Shown piece by piece: positions 2,477 through 8,402 of a stretch of DNA of 40,241 bases. This DNA comes from a virus. Numbering within the stretch: position 1 is the stretch's first letter; each line of letters begins with the position of its first letter. The position numbers and the translations under genes are program-made. The stretch is from positions 1-40,241 of the IMG/VR virus record IMGVR_UViG_3300020181_000005; one strand, 5' to 3'. A model generated the notes under the pieces. It was not told the DNA's origin, did not search any database, and was given only the letters and a program-made list of their open reading frames with translations.

Positions 2477-2843
2477 CTCTCCCACTGCGGCGACGTGCGC
2501 CGCCGTCGATGAACGCGACGACTACTGCTGCGTGCGGTGTGGTCGCTGGATCGACGGCGGCTCACGTCATCATCGACAGCTGCGCCGCTTCGGCGATCAC
2601 TCGACGGCGAATCTGATCCTGCTCTGCGGGAGCGGCACGACCGGCTGTCACGGCTGGGTGCATGCGCACCCGAAGATCTCATACGAAAACGGCTGGCTGG
2701 TGCACGGGTGGCACGAGTCGGCGGCGGTTCCGCTGCTCACCTATGGTGGGCGCTGGCGACTGCTGAACAGCGAAGGAAGCTACTCCCATATGACTCCCAC
2801 ACAAGCGCGCGAGCGTCTCGAAGAGCTCGGCGTTCTCTCATGA
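2469..2843 (+). CDS. HNH endonuclease
   Basis: CVRCG...SRHHRQLRRFGDHSTANLILLCGSGTTGCHGWVH is an HNH/Zn-finger motif. Codon usage is visibly less GC3-biased than in the neighbouring genes. Confidence 0.8.
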   Translation: MGSSPTAATCAAVDERDDYCCVRCGRWIDGGSRHHRQLRRFGDHSTANLILLCGSGTTGCHGWVHAHPKISYENGWLVHGWHESAAVPLLTYGGRWRLLNSEGSYSHMTPTQARERLEELGVLS

Positions 2844-3637
2844 CGTGGTTCAAGGTCGACGATCGGCTCGCATTCCACCCGAAGGTGCTCTCGGCGGGGA
2901 ATGAGGCGATGGGCCTCTGGGTGCGGGCGGGCGCGTACTGCGCGCAGATGCTGACGAACGGGCACGTGCCGCTGTCGATGCTCGCCCCTCTCGGGGCTGA
3001 CGAGAGTGTCGCTGAGCGTCTGGTCGCTGCGGGGCTGTGGCGCGAGGAGATCGACGGCTACAGCTTCCACGACTGGCATGATCTGCAGCCCACTCGTGAG
3101 AGTGTCGAGGCGGATCGTGAGGCTGCTCGTGAGCGGATGCGTGAGCTCCGAGCCGGTCGGAAGTCTCATAGGAACTCCACAGATGTTCGGGCGAACATCG
3201 ACCGAAGTTCGGAAGAAGTTCGTAACCCCGGCCCGTCCCGTACTTCTAACGAAGTACAAGCGCCGCAGAGCAGCGCGAAGACGCGAGGCACACGACTCCC
3301 TGACAGCTTCGAGCTCGACGACAAGTTGATCGCCTACACGCGCGAGAAGGGGCCCGCAGTCAACCTCGACCGGGAGCTCGAGAAGTTCCGCAACTTCTGG
3401 GCGTCAGCGTCAGGAGCGAACGCGGTGAAGCGCGACTGGCGACGTGCCTGGCAGAACTGGGTGCTCTCGGCTCAAGAGCGCGCAGAGGCGAACGGCTGGA
3501 AGCCGAGCGCTCAGCCTGTACCGTCGAAAGCGTCGGCACGGGATGCCTGGCTAGCAGCGCGGGGCGTGACCCGCGAAGAGTACGACCGTCGCAAGGGCGA
3601 AACGGGTTGGCTCGAGTCACTGAAGGAGAAGCCGTGA
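2840..3637 (+). CDS. Putative replication initiator / replisome organizer (DnaD-like C-terminus)
   Basis: The ATG overlaps the HNH stop (ATGA). The N-terminus MTWFKVDDRLAFHPKV...GLWVRAGAYCA and the C-terminus FRNFWASASGANAVKRDWRRAWQNWV are typical of actinophage replication organizers. It lies directly upstream of dnaB. The longer ORF from 2537 overlaps the HNH gene and was not used. Confidence 0.55.
   Translation: MTWFKVDDRLAFHPKVLSAGNEAMGLWVRAGAYCAQMLTNGHVPLSMLAPLGADESVAERLVAAGLWREEIDGYSFHDWHDLQPTRESVEADREAARERMRELRAGRKSHRNSTDVRANIDRSSEEVRNPGPSRTSNEVQAPQSSAKTRGTRLPDSFELDDKLIAYTREKGPAVNLDRELEKFRNFWASASGANAVKRDWRRAWQNWVLSAQERAEANGWKPSAQPVPSKASARDAWLAARGVTREEYDRRKGETGWLESLKEKP
3159..3257. promoter_or_regulatory. 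Putative origin-like iteron cluster embedded in the replication-initiator gene
   Basis: A low-GC patch. It contains an exact direct repeat GAAGTTCG at 3204-3211 and 3215-3222 (11-bp phasing) and degenerate copies GGAAGTC (3159) and GAAGTAC (3251). It also has the palindromes ATGTTCG-gg-CGAACAT (3183-3198) and GTACTTC-taac-GAAGTAC (3240-3257). Many A/T-ending codons occur here only. Confidence 0.45.
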
Positions 3638-4917
3638 GTGGCATGGAAGTTGATACGCGCACCGCAGAGCGCTCAGTGCTCGGCGGCATGCTGCTGGCGA
3701 AGCGCGTCGTGTGGGACGTCGTCGACGAGGTCGAGCCGGGAGACTTCGCGGACGGGCGTCACGAGACGATCTTCCGCACGATCGTCGCGCTCGCCCAGGA
3801 GAACCGCCCGACTGACGTGATCGCAGTCACTGAGCAGCTGGCGACCGCTGGCGAGCTCGAGCGTGTCGGCGGCGCCGCGCTGCTGCACGAGCTGACAGAC
3901 GAAGTGCCCACTGCAGCGAACGCGGGCTATTACGCGAGCATCGTGCGCAGGCACGCGATCAAGCGGCGACTGTTCGAGGTCGGCCAGCGTGTCGCGCAGA
4001 TGGGGCAGGCGACTGAGGGCGACGCGTACGAGCTCGTCGAGCATGCCCGCCGCGAGGTCGATGCGGTCGCGTCTGCAGCGCGCTCTGAGATCGCGCCCGT
4101 CGGCGACAGCGTCGAGGGCGTCGTCGACGCGCTACGCACCGCGCCGCGCTTCACGCCTACGCCGTGGACGTCGCTGAATGGGCTGATCAACGGCTTCCGC
4201 CCTGGCGCCATGTACGTGATCGGCGCCCGCCCGGGATCCGGTAAGACGATCATGGGGCTGCAGGCTGCGGTGCATCTCGCGCGTTCGGGAACGGTCGCGT
4301 TCTCGTCGCTCGAGATGGACACTGCAGATCTCACGCGACGGATCTTCGCTATGCGCGGTGGCGTGCATATGACGAGCCTCACGCGCAACGCGCTGACGCC
4401 GACCGACTGGGAGCGCATCGGCGCACTCAGGCCCGAAGTGCGCAAGATGCCGCTGTTTATCGACGACCGCTCAGGGGCGACCATGACGCAGATCAAGGCG
4501 CACGCTCGCAGCGTCGCACGTCGCGGCCAGCTCAGCGCGATCGTCGTCGACTACCTGCAGCTGATCAGGGCGACGGACCCGAAGCGGCCCCGCTGGGAGG
4601 TCGTCGGCGAGTTCTCGCGGGAGCTCAAGATCATGGCGCGCGAGCTCGAGGTTCCGGTGATCGCGCTCTGTCAGCTGAACCGCGAGAGCGAGCAGGGCGG
4701 GCGTCGTCTGCCGACTCTCAGCGATCTGCGGGAGTCTGGGTCAATCGAGCAGGACGCGGACGTCGTGCTGCTGCTGCAACGCGGTTGGGATGAGCAGCGG
4801 GAAGAGCATGACGATCAGCTGAACGTCGTGATCGCGAAGAACCGGCACGGGTCGACGGGGAAGATCTCGCTGTTCTGGGAGGGACACTTCGCGCGAGTGT
4901 CGGATATCCCCTGGTAG
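3634..4917 (+). CDS. dnaB: DnaB-type replicative DNA helicase
   Basis: The N-terminal domain ERSVLGGMLL...FADGRHETIFRTI, the Walker A motif GARPGSGKT and ...VVDYLQLI...CQLNRESEQ... are canonical DnaB features. The GTG start (GTGA overlap) follows a GAAGGAG ribosome-binding site. Confidence 0.9.
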   Translation: MSGMEVDTRTAERSVLGGMLLAKRVVWDVVDEVEPGDFADGRHETIFRTIVALAQENRPTDVIAVTEQLATAGELERVGGAALLHELTDEVPTAANAGYYASIVRRHAIKRRLFEVGQRVAQMGQATEGDAYELVEHARREVDAVASAARSEIAPVGDSVEGVVDALRTAPRFTPTPWTSLNGLINGFRPGAMYVIGARPGSGKTIMGLQAAVHLARSGTVAFSSLEMDTADLTRRIFAMRGGVHMTSLTRNALTPTDWERIGALRPEVRKMPLFIDDRSGATMTQIKAHARSVARRGQLSAIVVDYLQLIRATDPKRPRWEVVGEFSRELKIMARELEVPVIALCQLNRESEQGGRRLPTLSDLRESGSIEQDADVVLLLQRGWDEQREEHDDQLNVVIAKNRHGSTGKISLFWEGHFARVSDIPW

Positions 4918-6093: not shown

Positions 6094-6561
6094 ATGGCCG
6101 GAGAGACACCGCTCACGATCGTCGGCAATCTGACCGCCGACCCGGAGCTCCGCTACACGCAGAACGGGCTCGCCGTCGCGAACTTCACGATCGCCGCGAC
6201 CGAACGAACCTTCGACCGTCAGGCGAACGACTGGAAGGACGGCGACCCGCTGTTCCTTCGCTGCTCGATCTGGCGCGACTACGCCGAGCACGTCGCGGGC
6301 TCGCTCACCAAGGGTACCCGCGTGATCGCCACGGGCAGTCTGAAGCAGCGCAGCTACGAGACGAAGGAGGGCGAGAAGCGCACGGTGTTCGAGCTCGACG
6401 TGCTCGAGATCGGTCCGGCGCTGCGGTTCGCGACGGCGCAAGTCGTGCGCGCCACACAGGGCGGGGCGCCGGTGCAGCAGCAGCAGCAGCAGAGGCCGCA
6501 GCAGGACGACGTCTGGAACACGCCCGGCGCGGCGAGCTACGACGACGAGACGCCGTTCTGA
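6094..6561 (+). CDS. ssb: Single-stranded DNA-binding protein
   Basis: The OB-fold N-terminus reads [34 protein letters not shown]...[10 protein letters not shown] Gln-rich linker and the acidic tail DDETPF follow. Confidence 0.95.
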
Positions 6562-6620
6562 TCGAGTAGACTGGACGGCGATCCGGGCGGGTTTCATGGT
6601 GGCCCGCAGTGATCATTCTG

Positions 6621-6654
6621 AGCGGGGCGACGTATGGGAGTGCGTCGCCCCGCT
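6621..6654 (+). terminator. Intrinsic terminator after ssb
   Basis: An 11-12 bp GC stem (GCGGGGCGACG / CGTCGCCCCGC) is followed by TTCATTATT. Confidence 0.7.
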
Positions 6655-6661
6655 TCATTAT

Positions 6662-6677
6662 TGGTACGATGCAAACA
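6662..6677 (+). promoter_or_regulatory. Candidate extended -10 promoter giving a leaderless ParB-like transcript
   Basis: TGgTACGAT (TGn + TANNNT) at 6662-6670 is followed by 6 nt and then the ATG at 6677. No SD sequence is present. Confidence 0.4.
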
Positions 6678-7207
6678 TGAGCATGCAGGTTGTAAGCGTC
6701 CCCATCGCAGATCTCAATGCGTTCGAGGGAAACGCTCGCCGCGGCAACGTCGACGCGATCGCAGAGTCGCTCTTCACGAACGGGCAATACAAGCCGATCG
6801 TGGTGAATCGCGGCACGCACACCGGCAAGCCGAACGAAGTGCTCGCCGGGAATCACACTCTCGAGGCTGCAGCGTCGCTCGGCTGGGATGCGATCGAGTG
6901 CGTGTTCGTCGACGTCGACCGGGCGAGCGCTCTGAAGATCGTGCTGGCTGACAACCGGACGAACGATCTCGCGGCGTACGACGACCGCGAGCTGGTCGCG
7001 CTGTTGCAGGAGCTGCCGGATCTCGACGGCACCGCGTTCGATCAGGACGCTCTCGACCGACTGCTCGCGGGACTCGAGGCGCCCAACTTCGAGCCCGACG
7101 ACGAGGAAGACGTGCGACTCGACCGGAAGAGCGTGACGACGTGCCCTGAGTGTGGGCACGTGTTCACGCCCGTCACGCGCACAGCGACTGAGGACGATCT
7201 GCTGTGA
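6677..7207 (+). CDS. ParB-like nuclease-domain (ParB/Srx fold) protein with a C-terminal zinc ribbon
   Basis: ...NAFEGNARRGNVDAIAESL...YKPIVVN...VLAGNHTLEAAASLGWDAIECVFVDVD... is a ParB N-terminal domain. The C-terminus carries CPECGHVF. The upstream in-frame extension from 6596 would run through the terminator hairpin. Confidence 0.75.
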   Translation: MSMQVVSVPIADLNAFEGNARRGNVDAIAESLFTNGQYKPIVVNRGTHTGKPNEVLAGNHTLEAAASLGWDAIECVFVDVDRASALKIVLADNRTNDLAAYDDRELVALLQELPDLDGTAFDQDALDRLLAGLEAPNFEPDDEEDVRLDRKSVTTCPECGHVFTPVTRTATEDDLL

Positions 7208-7386
7208 CTCTCGCGCGTACTCGCGTGAAGAAACTCTCGCGACAGGTCGGCGTGCTCATGCACGAGCTCAGCGAGGACGATCCGGAGGCGTACGAGTTGC
7301 TGAAGGAGTATCACCACGCGCTGCGTGGTGCTGTGATCGAGCTGCGCGTCGAATTGCGCGAGCTCCGAGCGAAGGAGCTCACGTGA
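7204..7386 (+). CDS. hypothetical small coiled-coil protein
   Basis: 60 aa, coupled by GTGA overlaps on both sides. Confidence 0.55.
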   Translation: MTLARTRVKKLSRQVGVLMHELSEDDPEAYELLKEYHHALRGAVIELRVELRELRAKELT

Positions 7387-8015
7387 CACTGAAGATCGCG
7401 CCCGCCAGTCACGAGGCGGCGCTGTACGCGGTGCAGCACTGGCACTACAGCCGCAAGCTGCCCAGCGGCAAGCTGTTCCGCAGGGGCGTCTGGGAGCACG
7501 ACAAGTTCATCGGTGTCGTGATCTTCTCGCGCGGCGCGACGAACACGATCGGCAGCCCGTTCGGGCTGACACAGACGCAGTGCGTCGAGCTCACTCGTGT
7601 CGCCCTGAATGCGCACGATGCGCCGGTGTCGCAGATCGTCGCTGCAGCGATCCGAGATCTCAAGGCAGGCAATCCCGGGCTGAGACTGATCGTCAGCTAC
7701 GCCGACCCCATGCAGGGGCACCACGGCGGCATCTACCAAGCCGGGAACTGGATCTATGTCGGCCAGGGCAAGGCGGCGCCCGAGTTCGTCGTGAACGGCG
7801 TGCAGATGCACATGCGCAGCATTCACGCGAAGGGCTGGAAGCAGACGCTCGAGTGGCTGCGCGCGAACGTCGACCCGAAGGCGCGTCGCGTCGAGATCAC
7901 TCCGAAGCACAAATACGTGATGCCCCTCGACAAGCCCATGAGGCGGTCTGTCGCGAAGCTCGCGGTGGAGTATCCTCGAAGTGCGACGTCGGAAACGGCG
8001 ACGGACAGCGTCTAG
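7383..8015 (+). CDS. Mom-like GNAT-fold protein (possible DNA adenine-modifying enzyme); tentative
   Basis: The pattern HWHYSRKLP...FGVWE..KFIGVVIFSRGA...ELTRVAL...LIVSYADPMQGHHGGIYQAGNWIYVGQG matches my memory of the phage Mu Mom family (HYS...SYAD..GH.G.IY.A.NW). This was not verified by any search. The longer ORF from 7152 overlaps two upstream genes. Confidence 0.5.
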   Translation: MTLKIAPASHEAALYAVQHWHYSRKLPSGKLFRRGVWEHDKFIGVVIFSRGATNTIGSPFGLTQTQCVELTRVALNAHDAPVSQIVAAAIRDLKAGNPGLRLIVSYADPMQGHHGGIYQAGNWIYVGQGKAAPEFVVNGVQMHMRSIHAKGWKQTLEWLRANVDPKARRVEITPKHKYVMPLDKPMRRSVAKLAVEYPRSATSETATDSV

Positions 8016-8033
8016 CGTCGCACTGTCCAACAT

Positions 8034-8105
8034 GCGGGTGAAGCATCTGAGGCGATGCGCCGGACGACCAATCCGGAGGGGCTGGTTCGAACCCAGTCGC
8101 CCGCT
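8034..8105 (+). tRNA. tRNA-like element (72 nt, full cloverleaf, non-canonical anticodon loop CGACCAA)
   Basis: Folded by hand. Acceptor stem GCGGGTG/CGCCCGC is 7 bp with one G-U pair. D stem is GCAT/ATGC, with GG in the loop. Anticodon stem is CCGGA/TCCGG. T arm is GCTGG-TTCGAAC-CCAGT. Deviations from a standard tRNA: A8, C14, G33, and no encoded CCA. Confidence 0.4.
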
Positions 8106-8116
8106 CGGGGGCGGCA

Positions 8117-8150
8117 GCGCCGCGAGCCTTTTCGGGAGGGCTCGCGGCGC
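8117..8150. terminator. Bidirectional terminator hairpin between convergent transcription units
   Basis: The stem GCGCCGCGAGCC(TT)/(AG)GGCTCGCGGCGC is about 14 bp and is followed on the + strand by TTCGTCGTTT. It lies between the tRNA-like element and the 3' end of the reverse gene. Confidence 0.7.
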
Positions 8151-8159
8151 TTCGTCGTT

Positions 8160-8402
8160 TCAGTCGATCGTCACGCCCCGAAGAATCGCGGCGATCTCGC
8201 GCTCTGCGTCCTCGCGGGTGGGCACGTTCTCGATCGCGGTCGGTGCGCCGCTGTCGATGATCACGACGAGGCGCTGCAGCTGCGTCGAGTAGGTCGCGGT
8301 GACGGTGTGCGTCATGTAGTCGATGCGCAGCAGGTGGGAGACGGTGGGGCGCATGTTGCGGGGAGCGGCGGTCATCTTCACGGTGATCTTCGTTTGCGTC
8401 AT
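8160..8402 (-). CDS. hypothetical protein; the only reverse-strand gene (possible HicB-like or regulator; speculative)
   Basis: 80 aa (MTQTKITVKM...VPTREDAEREIAAILRGVTID) with strongly GC3-biased codons, unlike the overlapping + strand ORFs. A good promoter sits directly upstream, and there is no SD sequence (leaderless). Confidence 0.7.
   Translation of the reverse strand: MTQTKITVKMTAAPRNMRPTVSHLLRIDYMTHTVTATYSTQLQRLVVIIDSGAPTAIENVPTREDAEREIAAILRGVTID

Follow-up and report, generated by a model that had tools for sequence, protein, structure and literature searches.

A non-canonical tRNA-Gly-like element at the 3' end of phage mom genes and its probable role as a glycyl carrier for DNA modification

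The DNA analysed here (the window) is the complete genome, 40,241 bp with direct terminal repeats, of a phage with a single tRNA, as judged by ARAGORN and the Rfam tRNA model. This element lies directly behind a gene of the Mom family, downstream of the replication module. The relevant features are these:

954-2042: RecT-like protein, upstream replication module
2537-3637: replication initiator-like protein, upstream replication module
3607-4917: DnaB helicase, upstream replication module
6094-6561: SSB, upstream replication module
6596-7207, + strand: gene for a ParB-like protein (ParB N-terminal domain), by PHROG 723 (E 1e-50) and a weak Pfam ParB_N match
7204-7386, + strand: small ORF of 60 aa between the ParB-like gene and mom, from sequence and translation
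7383-8015, + strand: mom, encoding a Mom-family GNAT of 210 aa (Pfam PF25680), starting with GTG at 7383
8034-8105, + strand: tRNA-Gly-derived RNA, 72 nt up to discriminator U73 (ARAGORN, Rfam RF00005)
8107-8160, + strand: G+C-rich hairpin directly 3' of the tRNA, between converging genes, from its fold

The stop codon of mom is separated from the element by only 18 nt. That this neighbor is mom was not part of the original prediction, and it bears on everything that follows. The gene product is assigned to the Mom family by its score for PF25680 (E 1.4e-48, 165.7 bits against a curated cut-off of 27.1) and by the presence of both essential residues of Mu Mom in an alignment to PDB entry 8bv8, where the Arg of an ELTR motif and the Ser of a PVSQI motif correspond to Mu R111 and S124 (allowing for an offset of 9 in the truncated chain, deduced from the S124A chain). 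PHROG 1384, "Mom-like DNA modification protein," gives E 2e-59. The mom ORF is open from position 7152, but homology begins only at 7383, where the GTG is preceded by an RBS-like GAAGGAG; the 77 N-terminal residues of the longer ORF are not conserved.

The ParB-like gene is the apparent first gene of a unit consisting of the parB-like gene, the small ORF, mom and the tRNA. The small ORF is tied to its neighbors by GTGA overlaps, with the ParB-like stop at its start and with the mom start at its stop, and its position matches that of the small gene 71 of Arthrobacter phage StevieBAY. Its product is helical. A ParB-like gene just upstream of mom is also found in phages Appa and phiEf11 and, with a small ORF between, in StevieBAY, which suggests that the ParB-like protein and Mom work together. 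A search of the + strand from 6500 to 8100 gave no sigma-70-like promoter, and co-transcription with mom is therefore the simplest reading of how the element would be expressed. The hairpin that follows is far more stable than its composition predicts (-42.6 kcal/mol, z -5.4, with none of 200 shuffles as stable), and beyond it lies a gene on the opposite strand. From this predicted fold, the hairpin is likely to be both a transcription terminator and a 3' processing boundary. A simple terminator scan did not call it, because its T tract is interrupted. The other Rfam matches near the element (DUF3800-IV and microRNA models, E > 1) fall on this hairpin only.

The element itself forms a complete cloverleaf, as the original prediction had described from folding by hand, and both the sequence and the ARAGORN drawing agree with that description. 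The acceptor stem has 7 bp (GCGGGUG/CGCCCGC, with a single U6-G67 wobble), the D stem 4 bp (GCAU/AUGC, with a loop of 8 nt that contains GG) and the anticodon stem 5 bp (CCGGA/UCCGG), while the T arm, GCUGG-UUCGAAC-CCAGU, has a canonical loop. The departures from tRNA rules that had been pointed out are equally present in the sequence. The anticodon loop, CGACCAA, reads C32 G33 A34 C35 C36 A37 A38, giving a nominal anticodon of ACC; position 8 is A and position 14 is C; and no CCA is encoded, the next nucleotides being CGG. A canonical elongator tRNA would have U33, U8 and A14, and the element has none of the three. A34 is also unusual in bacterial tRNAs, where it is normally found only in tRNA-Arg(ACG).

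Two of the searches that had been proposed as checks recover the element. ARAGORN calls a tRNA-Gly(acc) at 8034-8106, and the RF00005 covariance model matches along its full length (positions 1-71 of 71) with 36.3 bits, above the gathering cut-off of 29 and not below noise (E 3e-6 in a local scan and 9e-8 over the whole phage). A gathering scan of the whole window with Rfam reported no tRNA at the element, because of the speed filters. The expectation that so much pairing is unlikely by chance holds on some grounds and fails on another. The minimum free energy structure is indeed the cloverleaf (-32 kcal/mol), but its energy is not significant against shuffles (z -1.5, 14 of 200 equally stable), and in a genome of 67% G+C thermodynamics alone does not distinguish the element. 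What sets it apart from chance is instead the covariance-model score together with covariation in homologues, described below.

In other respects the element has the marks of a glycine acceptor. In E. coli, G3:C70 is an additional member of the GlyRS identity set, and the element has this pair. It also has every nucleotide of the bacterial GlyRS identity set, namely G1:C72, C2:G71, U73, C35 and C36 (PMC10464925).

Such a resemblance could be a relic of integration, and the original prediction had considered an attP-type remnant, a copy of part of a host tRNA gene. The 3' acceptor and T region does resemble actinomycete tRNA-Gly(UCC), the best matches in 401 Actinomycetes genomes (the host class, chosen via a Crossiella locus, and including the unpublished genomes G304, G263, G007, G030, G373, G043, G032, G036, G024 and G015, on which the negative partly rests) being 28 nt at 89% and 39 nt at 82%. 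With no long identical stretch among these genomes, this shows ordinary resemblance to tRNA-Gly(UCC) rather than the identity of a core site, and the element does not qualify as an attP/attB remnant. Nor does the complete genome encode a tyrosine or serine recombinase (no PF00589 or PF00239 match), in agreement with the earlier failure to find an integrase. By its position the element belongs with mom and not with an integration module, and distant phages have kept a full cloverleaf with compensatory evolution, at a constant location with respect to mom. An origin as an integration remnant can thus be set aside almost entirely.

How general is the association with mom? Of the Mom loci taken from IMG/VR, metagenomes and bacterial genomes, 22 have an ARAGORN-called tRNA at the 3' end of mom (25 entries with the three Appa-region copies L005, L015 and L028 and the window). 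These represent 17 distinct sequences, and all 17 are tRNA-Gly, mostly UCC, with CCC in two and ACC in the window; they range from an overlap of 38 nt to a distance of 64 nt past the end of the Mom match. The only other tRNAs that ARAGORN calls in the fetched loci are Asn and Trp; they belong to a single group of related viral contigs and lie some 1.2 kb upstream of mom. A covariance model, R1, was built from the 17 Mom-linked sequences. It has a same-strand match (E < 0.01) at the mom 3' end in about 97-100 of 173 loci, and in 12 of the 23 loci from bacterial genomes, most of which are metagenome-assembled and assigned to many phyla. The sole other matches at E < 0.01 in mom loci are the tRNA-Trp genes about 1.2 kb upstream of mom. 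The window element scores 79 bits, which is not independent evidence since it is one of the seeds. Ordinary actinomycete tRNA-Gly genes also score 55-62 bits with R1, and the Mom-linked family is therefore defined by its position and odd nucleotides, and not by score alone. A member lies on the same strand as mom, within about 100 nt of its 3' end, and has A8 and the invariant set of nucleotides given below; the window element has all of these.

Several cultured phages belong to this group. The closest Mom proteins to that of the window (65% identity) are from Arthrobacter phages, in which R1 matches at the mom 3' end and neither ARAGORN nor the GenBank annotation has a tRNA at the mom locus. 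In the Marthavirus StevieBAY (MT310895; L001, 4570-4640), and likewise in L002, L003 and L016, an unannotated tRNA-Gly-like gene (64-68 bits with R1) with UCC in its loop overlaps the 3' end of the gene annotated as "acetyltransferase" (Mom); ARAGORN misses it because its D loop lacks the GG. Microbacterium phage Appa has the same gene order as the window (helicase, SSB, ParB-like, Mom, tRNA-Gly), with its annotated tRNA-Gly(ccc) on the strand opposite to mom. The Appa-group tRNA (gene 48; L005, 3654-3728) combines A8 with U14, has its CCA encoded, and is mismatched at G7-A66 and C29-A41. In the cultured Salinibacter phage B2_17 (OR896349; L219, 2082-2154), 33 nt separate an unnamed homologue of Mom from the annotated tRNA-Gly that follows it. 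This tRNA has the loop CGUCCAG, with G33, and a D arm like that of the window element, and it is not called by ARAGORN. Indeed, ARAGORN missed most members of the family, including those of B2_17 and the Arthrobacter phages. Rfam is also a poor detector, since it passed over the element in the whole-window scan and reported nothing at E 0.01 in L018, although ARAGORN calls a tRNA-Gly with G55 there.

The association is not universal. No such element accompanies mom in Mu, Enterococcus phage phiEf11 or Corynebacterium phage Darwin, and about 40% of the related mom loci have none that is detectable. On a FastTree phylogeny of 145 distinct Mom proteins, with the element present in 82 and absent in 58 (where "absent" may include copies invisible to the model), its presence requires at least 20 state changes, compared to 45 for shuffled labels. 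Presence of the element is thus largely inherited, but repeatedly lost or gained.

The association is also recovered from the opposite direction. IMG/VR was searched with a pattern that made no reference to Mom (GCG, four free bases, AAGCAT, six free bases, CGATGC), and 80 loci were listed; a match was considered genuine if it had 7/7 acceptor pairing and U73. Among the matches listed, 45 were genuine, and in 35 of these a same-strand Mom homologue lay no more than 800 nt upstream. Of the other ten genuine matches, three have less than 340 nt of upstream sequence. None of the 28 chance matches among those listed had Mom anywhere in the locus. Two further searches gave no near relative of the window element: an exact search of IMG/VR with the 17-nt anticodon arm returned two matches, both by chance and inside coding sequence, and a metagenome search with the window Mom found nothing above 59% identity and no near orthologue of the window tRNA there.

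The nearest relative of the window tRNA (L231/L299; L299, 1-3527, minus strand) agrees with it in the GCGGGUG acceptor strand and in the D stem, has AGACCAG as its loop, and does not follow mom. It comes after a DUF488 gene, a gene with fused PF22555 and PF22559 domains and a 313-aa ORF that has no Pfam match, and a Mor-like gene lies downstream in this cassette. The fusion gene combines a Dam-like domain with a phage GNAT-like domain, and is a candidate for another DNA-modifying acyltransferase.

The junction between mom and the tRNA varies. In many loci no stop codon closes the mom frame ahead of the tRNA; the frame crosses the entire tRNA and ends directly behind it (L017, 1180-1266; L056, 3093-3190; L068, 3066-3154; L070, 1546-1644; and likewise L091 and L095). 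Excision of the tRNA would then leave a mom mRNA without a stop codon, which could couple Mom synthesis to tRNA processing. In other loci mom is interrupted by about 560 nt, with the Mom homology divided between two ORFs (L004, 1253-2535; L018, 507-1771; L019; L037, 2501-3759); the insertion in L018 matches no Rfam intron model.

Such arrangements raise the question of whether the element acts mainly in cis, as a 3' module of the mom mRNA, for instance as an RNase P or RNase Z site or a stabilizer that sets the level of Mom expression. Its location at the mom 3' end and on the mom strand, the lack of a visible promoter of its own in the window, and the removal of the stop codon upon excision where the mom frame crosses the tRNA would all fit. 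A processing signal, on the other hand, needs only acceptor and T arms, and this leaves unexplained the invariant C35 and C36, the G1-G3/U73 set and the encoded CCA in 46 of 76 copies. The Appa tRNA has also been retained in spite of its opposite orientation. A predominantly cis-acting element is consequently unlikely, although processing in cis could still be an added role besides that of a carrier.

What has selection preserved in this family? An alignment of 76 distinct copies (A4) gives a clear division between conserved and variable positions. In the four helices, 93.5% of the cells are paired, compared to 29-46% when the partners are slid by 1-3 columns, and there are 442 double-sided changes, with compensatory change in 17 of the 21 pairs, so that the cloverleaf is upheld by covariation, with the reservation that the alignment was fitted to the model. 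G1:C72, C2:G71 and G3:C70 are invariant in all 76 copies, whereas pairs 4-7 occur in every combination. C35 and C36 are invariant in 72 of 72 seven-base loops, and U73 is invariant as well. Judged from these copies, the glycine identity nucleotides and the cloverleaf are under clear purifying selection.

The features that have been released are of a different kind, mattering for decoding and for the tRNA core. Position 33 is U in 40 of the 72 loops, G in 15, A in 13 and C in 4, so that 44% lack U33; position 34 is U in 47, A in 21, C in 4 and never G; and positions 32-34 and 37-38 of the loop are very variable across the family. A8 replaces U8 in 71 of 76 copies (93%), while all of the host tRNAs compared have U8, and G55 replaces U55 in 44 of 75 (59%). 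CCA is encoded in 46 of the 76 copies, and its absence from the window copy is not in itself anomalous, since CCA-less tRNA genes occur in actinomycete genomes, where they are normal. A high-confidence subset (at least 40 bits and an intact anticodon stem, n = 54) agrees, with C35 and C36 in 54 of 54 and a nucleotide other than U at position 33 in 19 (35%). The combination of G33 and A34 recurs in eight further copies (L073, L137, L088, L155, L089, L074, L134 and L078), and on this comparison its occurrence in the window is not a private accident. Since the invariant set is the GlyRS identity set and the decoding features have been released, the RNA appears to have been selected for glycine charging and not for codon reading. 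The proposal that the element is a degenerate phage tRNA, in the sense of decay, is not supported for the same reason: its odd features, A8 and the lack of U33, are family-wide, and they coexist with purifying selection on the cloverleaf and on glycine identity.

Low-scoring members of the family have lost the D arm and are only about 65 nt long, nearly all of them still with CCA. Examples are found in L063 (728-792), L173 (815-879), L075 (3103-3167), L089 (3097-3161) and L099 (1224-1288). These members retain the G1-G3 acceptor, an NNNCCAN loop, a TGCAAC-type T loop, U73 and the encoded CCA, and are candidates for natural minimal glycine acceptors. A large subgroup (for example L148, L056 and L131) has a conserved G50-A64 mismatch in the T stem, a pair that is unpaired in 48 of the 76 copies, and an additional C where the T stem meets the acceptor stem.

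Phage tRNAs have been seen as a supplement to codon supply, and the element might be an ordinary tRNA-Gly for codon compensation, with its adjacency to mom either an inherited accident or a response to a need for Gly-tRNA created by the drain through Mom. It passes the Rfam cut-off for tRNA, its T loop is canonical and its D loop contains GG, and most family members have U33 and a UCC anticodon. The window copy, on the other hand, has G33 in place of the near-universal U33, along with the unusual A34, and GGU is a minor codon here, accounting for 12% of glycine codons compared to 56% for GGC (shares that rest on a rough GC3-based gene call), so that no decoding rationale is apparent. In the family at large, C35 and C36 are fixed but positions 33 and 34 drift, universal nucleotides are replaced by A8 and G55, and some members of about 65 nt have no D arm. 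Codon compensation is thus improbable as the main function. Nevertheless, as a G33 tRNA the element may retain residual decoding, and most of its relatives, with their U33 and UCC anticodon, could by their sequences serve translation as well.

Evasion of host defenses offers another possible reason for loop variation. Some phage tRNAs are known to escape anticodon nucleases through changes in their anticodon loops (van den Berg et al., eLife 2023, PMC10264068); like the Mom-linked family they are phage-encoded and have loops that depart from the host consensus. The very variable loop positions 32-34 and 37-38 could then reflect an arms race, with the element standing in for host tRNA-Gly as a nuclease-resistant replacement or diverting anticodon nucleases as a decoy. 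A replacement must still decode, as those tRNAs must, which conflicts with the 35-44% of copies without U33, and a decoy needs neither the GlyRS identity set nor CCA. The Mom-linked departures include position 33 itself and are confined to glycine and bound to mom, and neither version explains the constant glycine type or the attachment to mom. An anti-defense function is therefore very doubtful.

The identity of the neighboring gene provides a more direct explanation. Mom of phage Mu moves glycine from Gly-tRNAGly onto N6 of adenine in double-stranded DNA, with a subsequent rearrangement to N6-carbamoylmethyl-adenine (Silva et al., Nat Commun 2026, PMC13219725). The enzyme is selective for the tRNAGly body: it accepts all three E. 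coli tRNAGly isoacceptors and does not use glycine on tRNAAla (PMC13219725). In that study the tRNA is treated as a scavenged host resource, and phage-encoded tRNAs are not mentioned. The original prediction had also raised the possibility of a functional mimic, acting either as a decoy, for which there is no support, or as a substrate or scaffold for neighboring enzymes. The substrate or scaffold option is now favored, because the neighbor, Mom, is a Gly-tRNAGly-dependent DNA aminoacyl transferase. It is probable, at about 70%, that the element is a phage-encoded descendant of tRNA-Gly that acts as a dedicated, non-decoding glycyl carrier for the Mom encoded upstream.

A plausible sequence of events can be put together from the genes and nucleotides involved. 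The element would be transcribed as the 3' tail of the parB-like/small-ORF/mom operon, ending at the hairpin, and would be released by host RNase P and 3' trimming, with CCA added by the host CCA-adding enzyme. Host GlyRS would charge it by way of G1:C72, C2:G71, U73, C35 and C36. G33 and A34, together with A8 and C14, would probably make it a poor substrate for the ribosome, and poor use by EF-Tu and the ribosome would keep the charged RNA out of translation. The cognate Mom would use it preferentially, placing the glycyl group on N6 of adenine in double-stranded phage DNA to yield N6-carbamoylmethyl-adenine and block restriction, a chemistry that is known for Mu Mom and presumed for the homologue in the window.

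Why would a phage bring its own tRNA for this purpose? Mu Mom works with every host tRNAGly isoacceptor, and a private tRNA is therefore not required in principle. It must also be noted that the window copy has the TTC of its T loop and the GG of its D loop intact, so that only G33 and A34, with A8 and C14, speak against decoding. The window Mom and Mu Mom are otherwise alike in belonging to PF25680, in keeping the essential Arg and Ser (PMC13219725; PDB 8bv8), and in having a tRNA-Gly-type molecule with matching identity nucleotides as the glycyl donor, which for the window is the predicted arrangement. They differ in that Mu has no tRNA near mom and is described as scavenging any host isoacceptor, whereas the window and about 100 related loci supply a non-canonical tRNA-Gly of their own at the mom 3' end.

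There is a cellular precedent for such a division of labor. In Staphylococcus aureus and S. epidermidis, the non-proteogenic tRNAGly species NP1-NP3 are the glycyl donors for FmhB, FemA and FemB, and they have TGC or TGT in the T loop and a UCC anticodon and bind EF-Tu weakly (PMC7826273). Both groups would supply glycine, as dedicated carriers, to a GNAT-fold aminoacyl transferase that works outside translation, the Mom-linked side of the comparison being drawn from genes and sequences; both have kept GlyRS recognition and lost features needed in translation; and TGC in place of TTC in the T loop is found in 59% of the Mom-linked family as well. The staphylococcal tRNAs, however, are cellular, limited to staphylococci, have kept U8 and serve cell-wall synthesis, whereas the Mom-linked family is viral, is presumably devoted to DNA modification, and has A8, often no U33 and in some members no D arm. 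The window element, with TTC and ACC rather than TGC or TGT and UCC, does not belong to the staphylococcal group, and by this analogy resembles it in function only, not in lineage.

The literature on Mom and momylation contains no description that we found of Mom-linked tRNA genes. Dedicated non-ribosomal aminoacyl-tRNA donors and momylation by Mom were already known; the viral tRNA family that would connect them was not described in the literature searched. Extended to the family as a whole, the argument has somewhat better than even odds: many phages would encode fast-evolving, private carriers derived from tRNA-Gly and fused to the 3' ends of mom-type GNAT genes. Among them would be phages of soil, freshwater, marine and saline habitats, and prophages or phage contigs in genome assemblies of at least ten bacterial phyla. 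The family would span the range from near-canonical tRNAs to the D-arm-less forms, and would direct glycine to DNA hypermodification and not to the ribosome. The Mom proteins of such clades would have co-evolved to prefer the private RNAs, insulating DNA modification from translation, and where the mom frame crosses the tRNA, excision would also govern Mom synthesis.

Phage tRNAs have so far been explained by codon supply and, lately, by evasion of tRNA-cleaving defenses. A viral tRNA that is kept for charging, freed from decoding and wired to a DNA-modifying enzyme would, if this reading is correct, constitute a third role. It would also extend the 2026 finding on Mom, in that many phages would supply the cofactor themselves and not draw on the host for it. 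Most members escape both standard tRNA finders and GenBank annotation, as the unannotated gene of StevieBAY illustrates. Microbacterium phage Appa, the Arthrobacter Marthavirus phages and Salinibacter phage B2_17 are cultured and provide engineerable systems, and the family would offer natural minimal glycine-acceptor RNAs with which to probe what GlyRS, EF-Tu and aminoacyl transferases need from their tRNAs.
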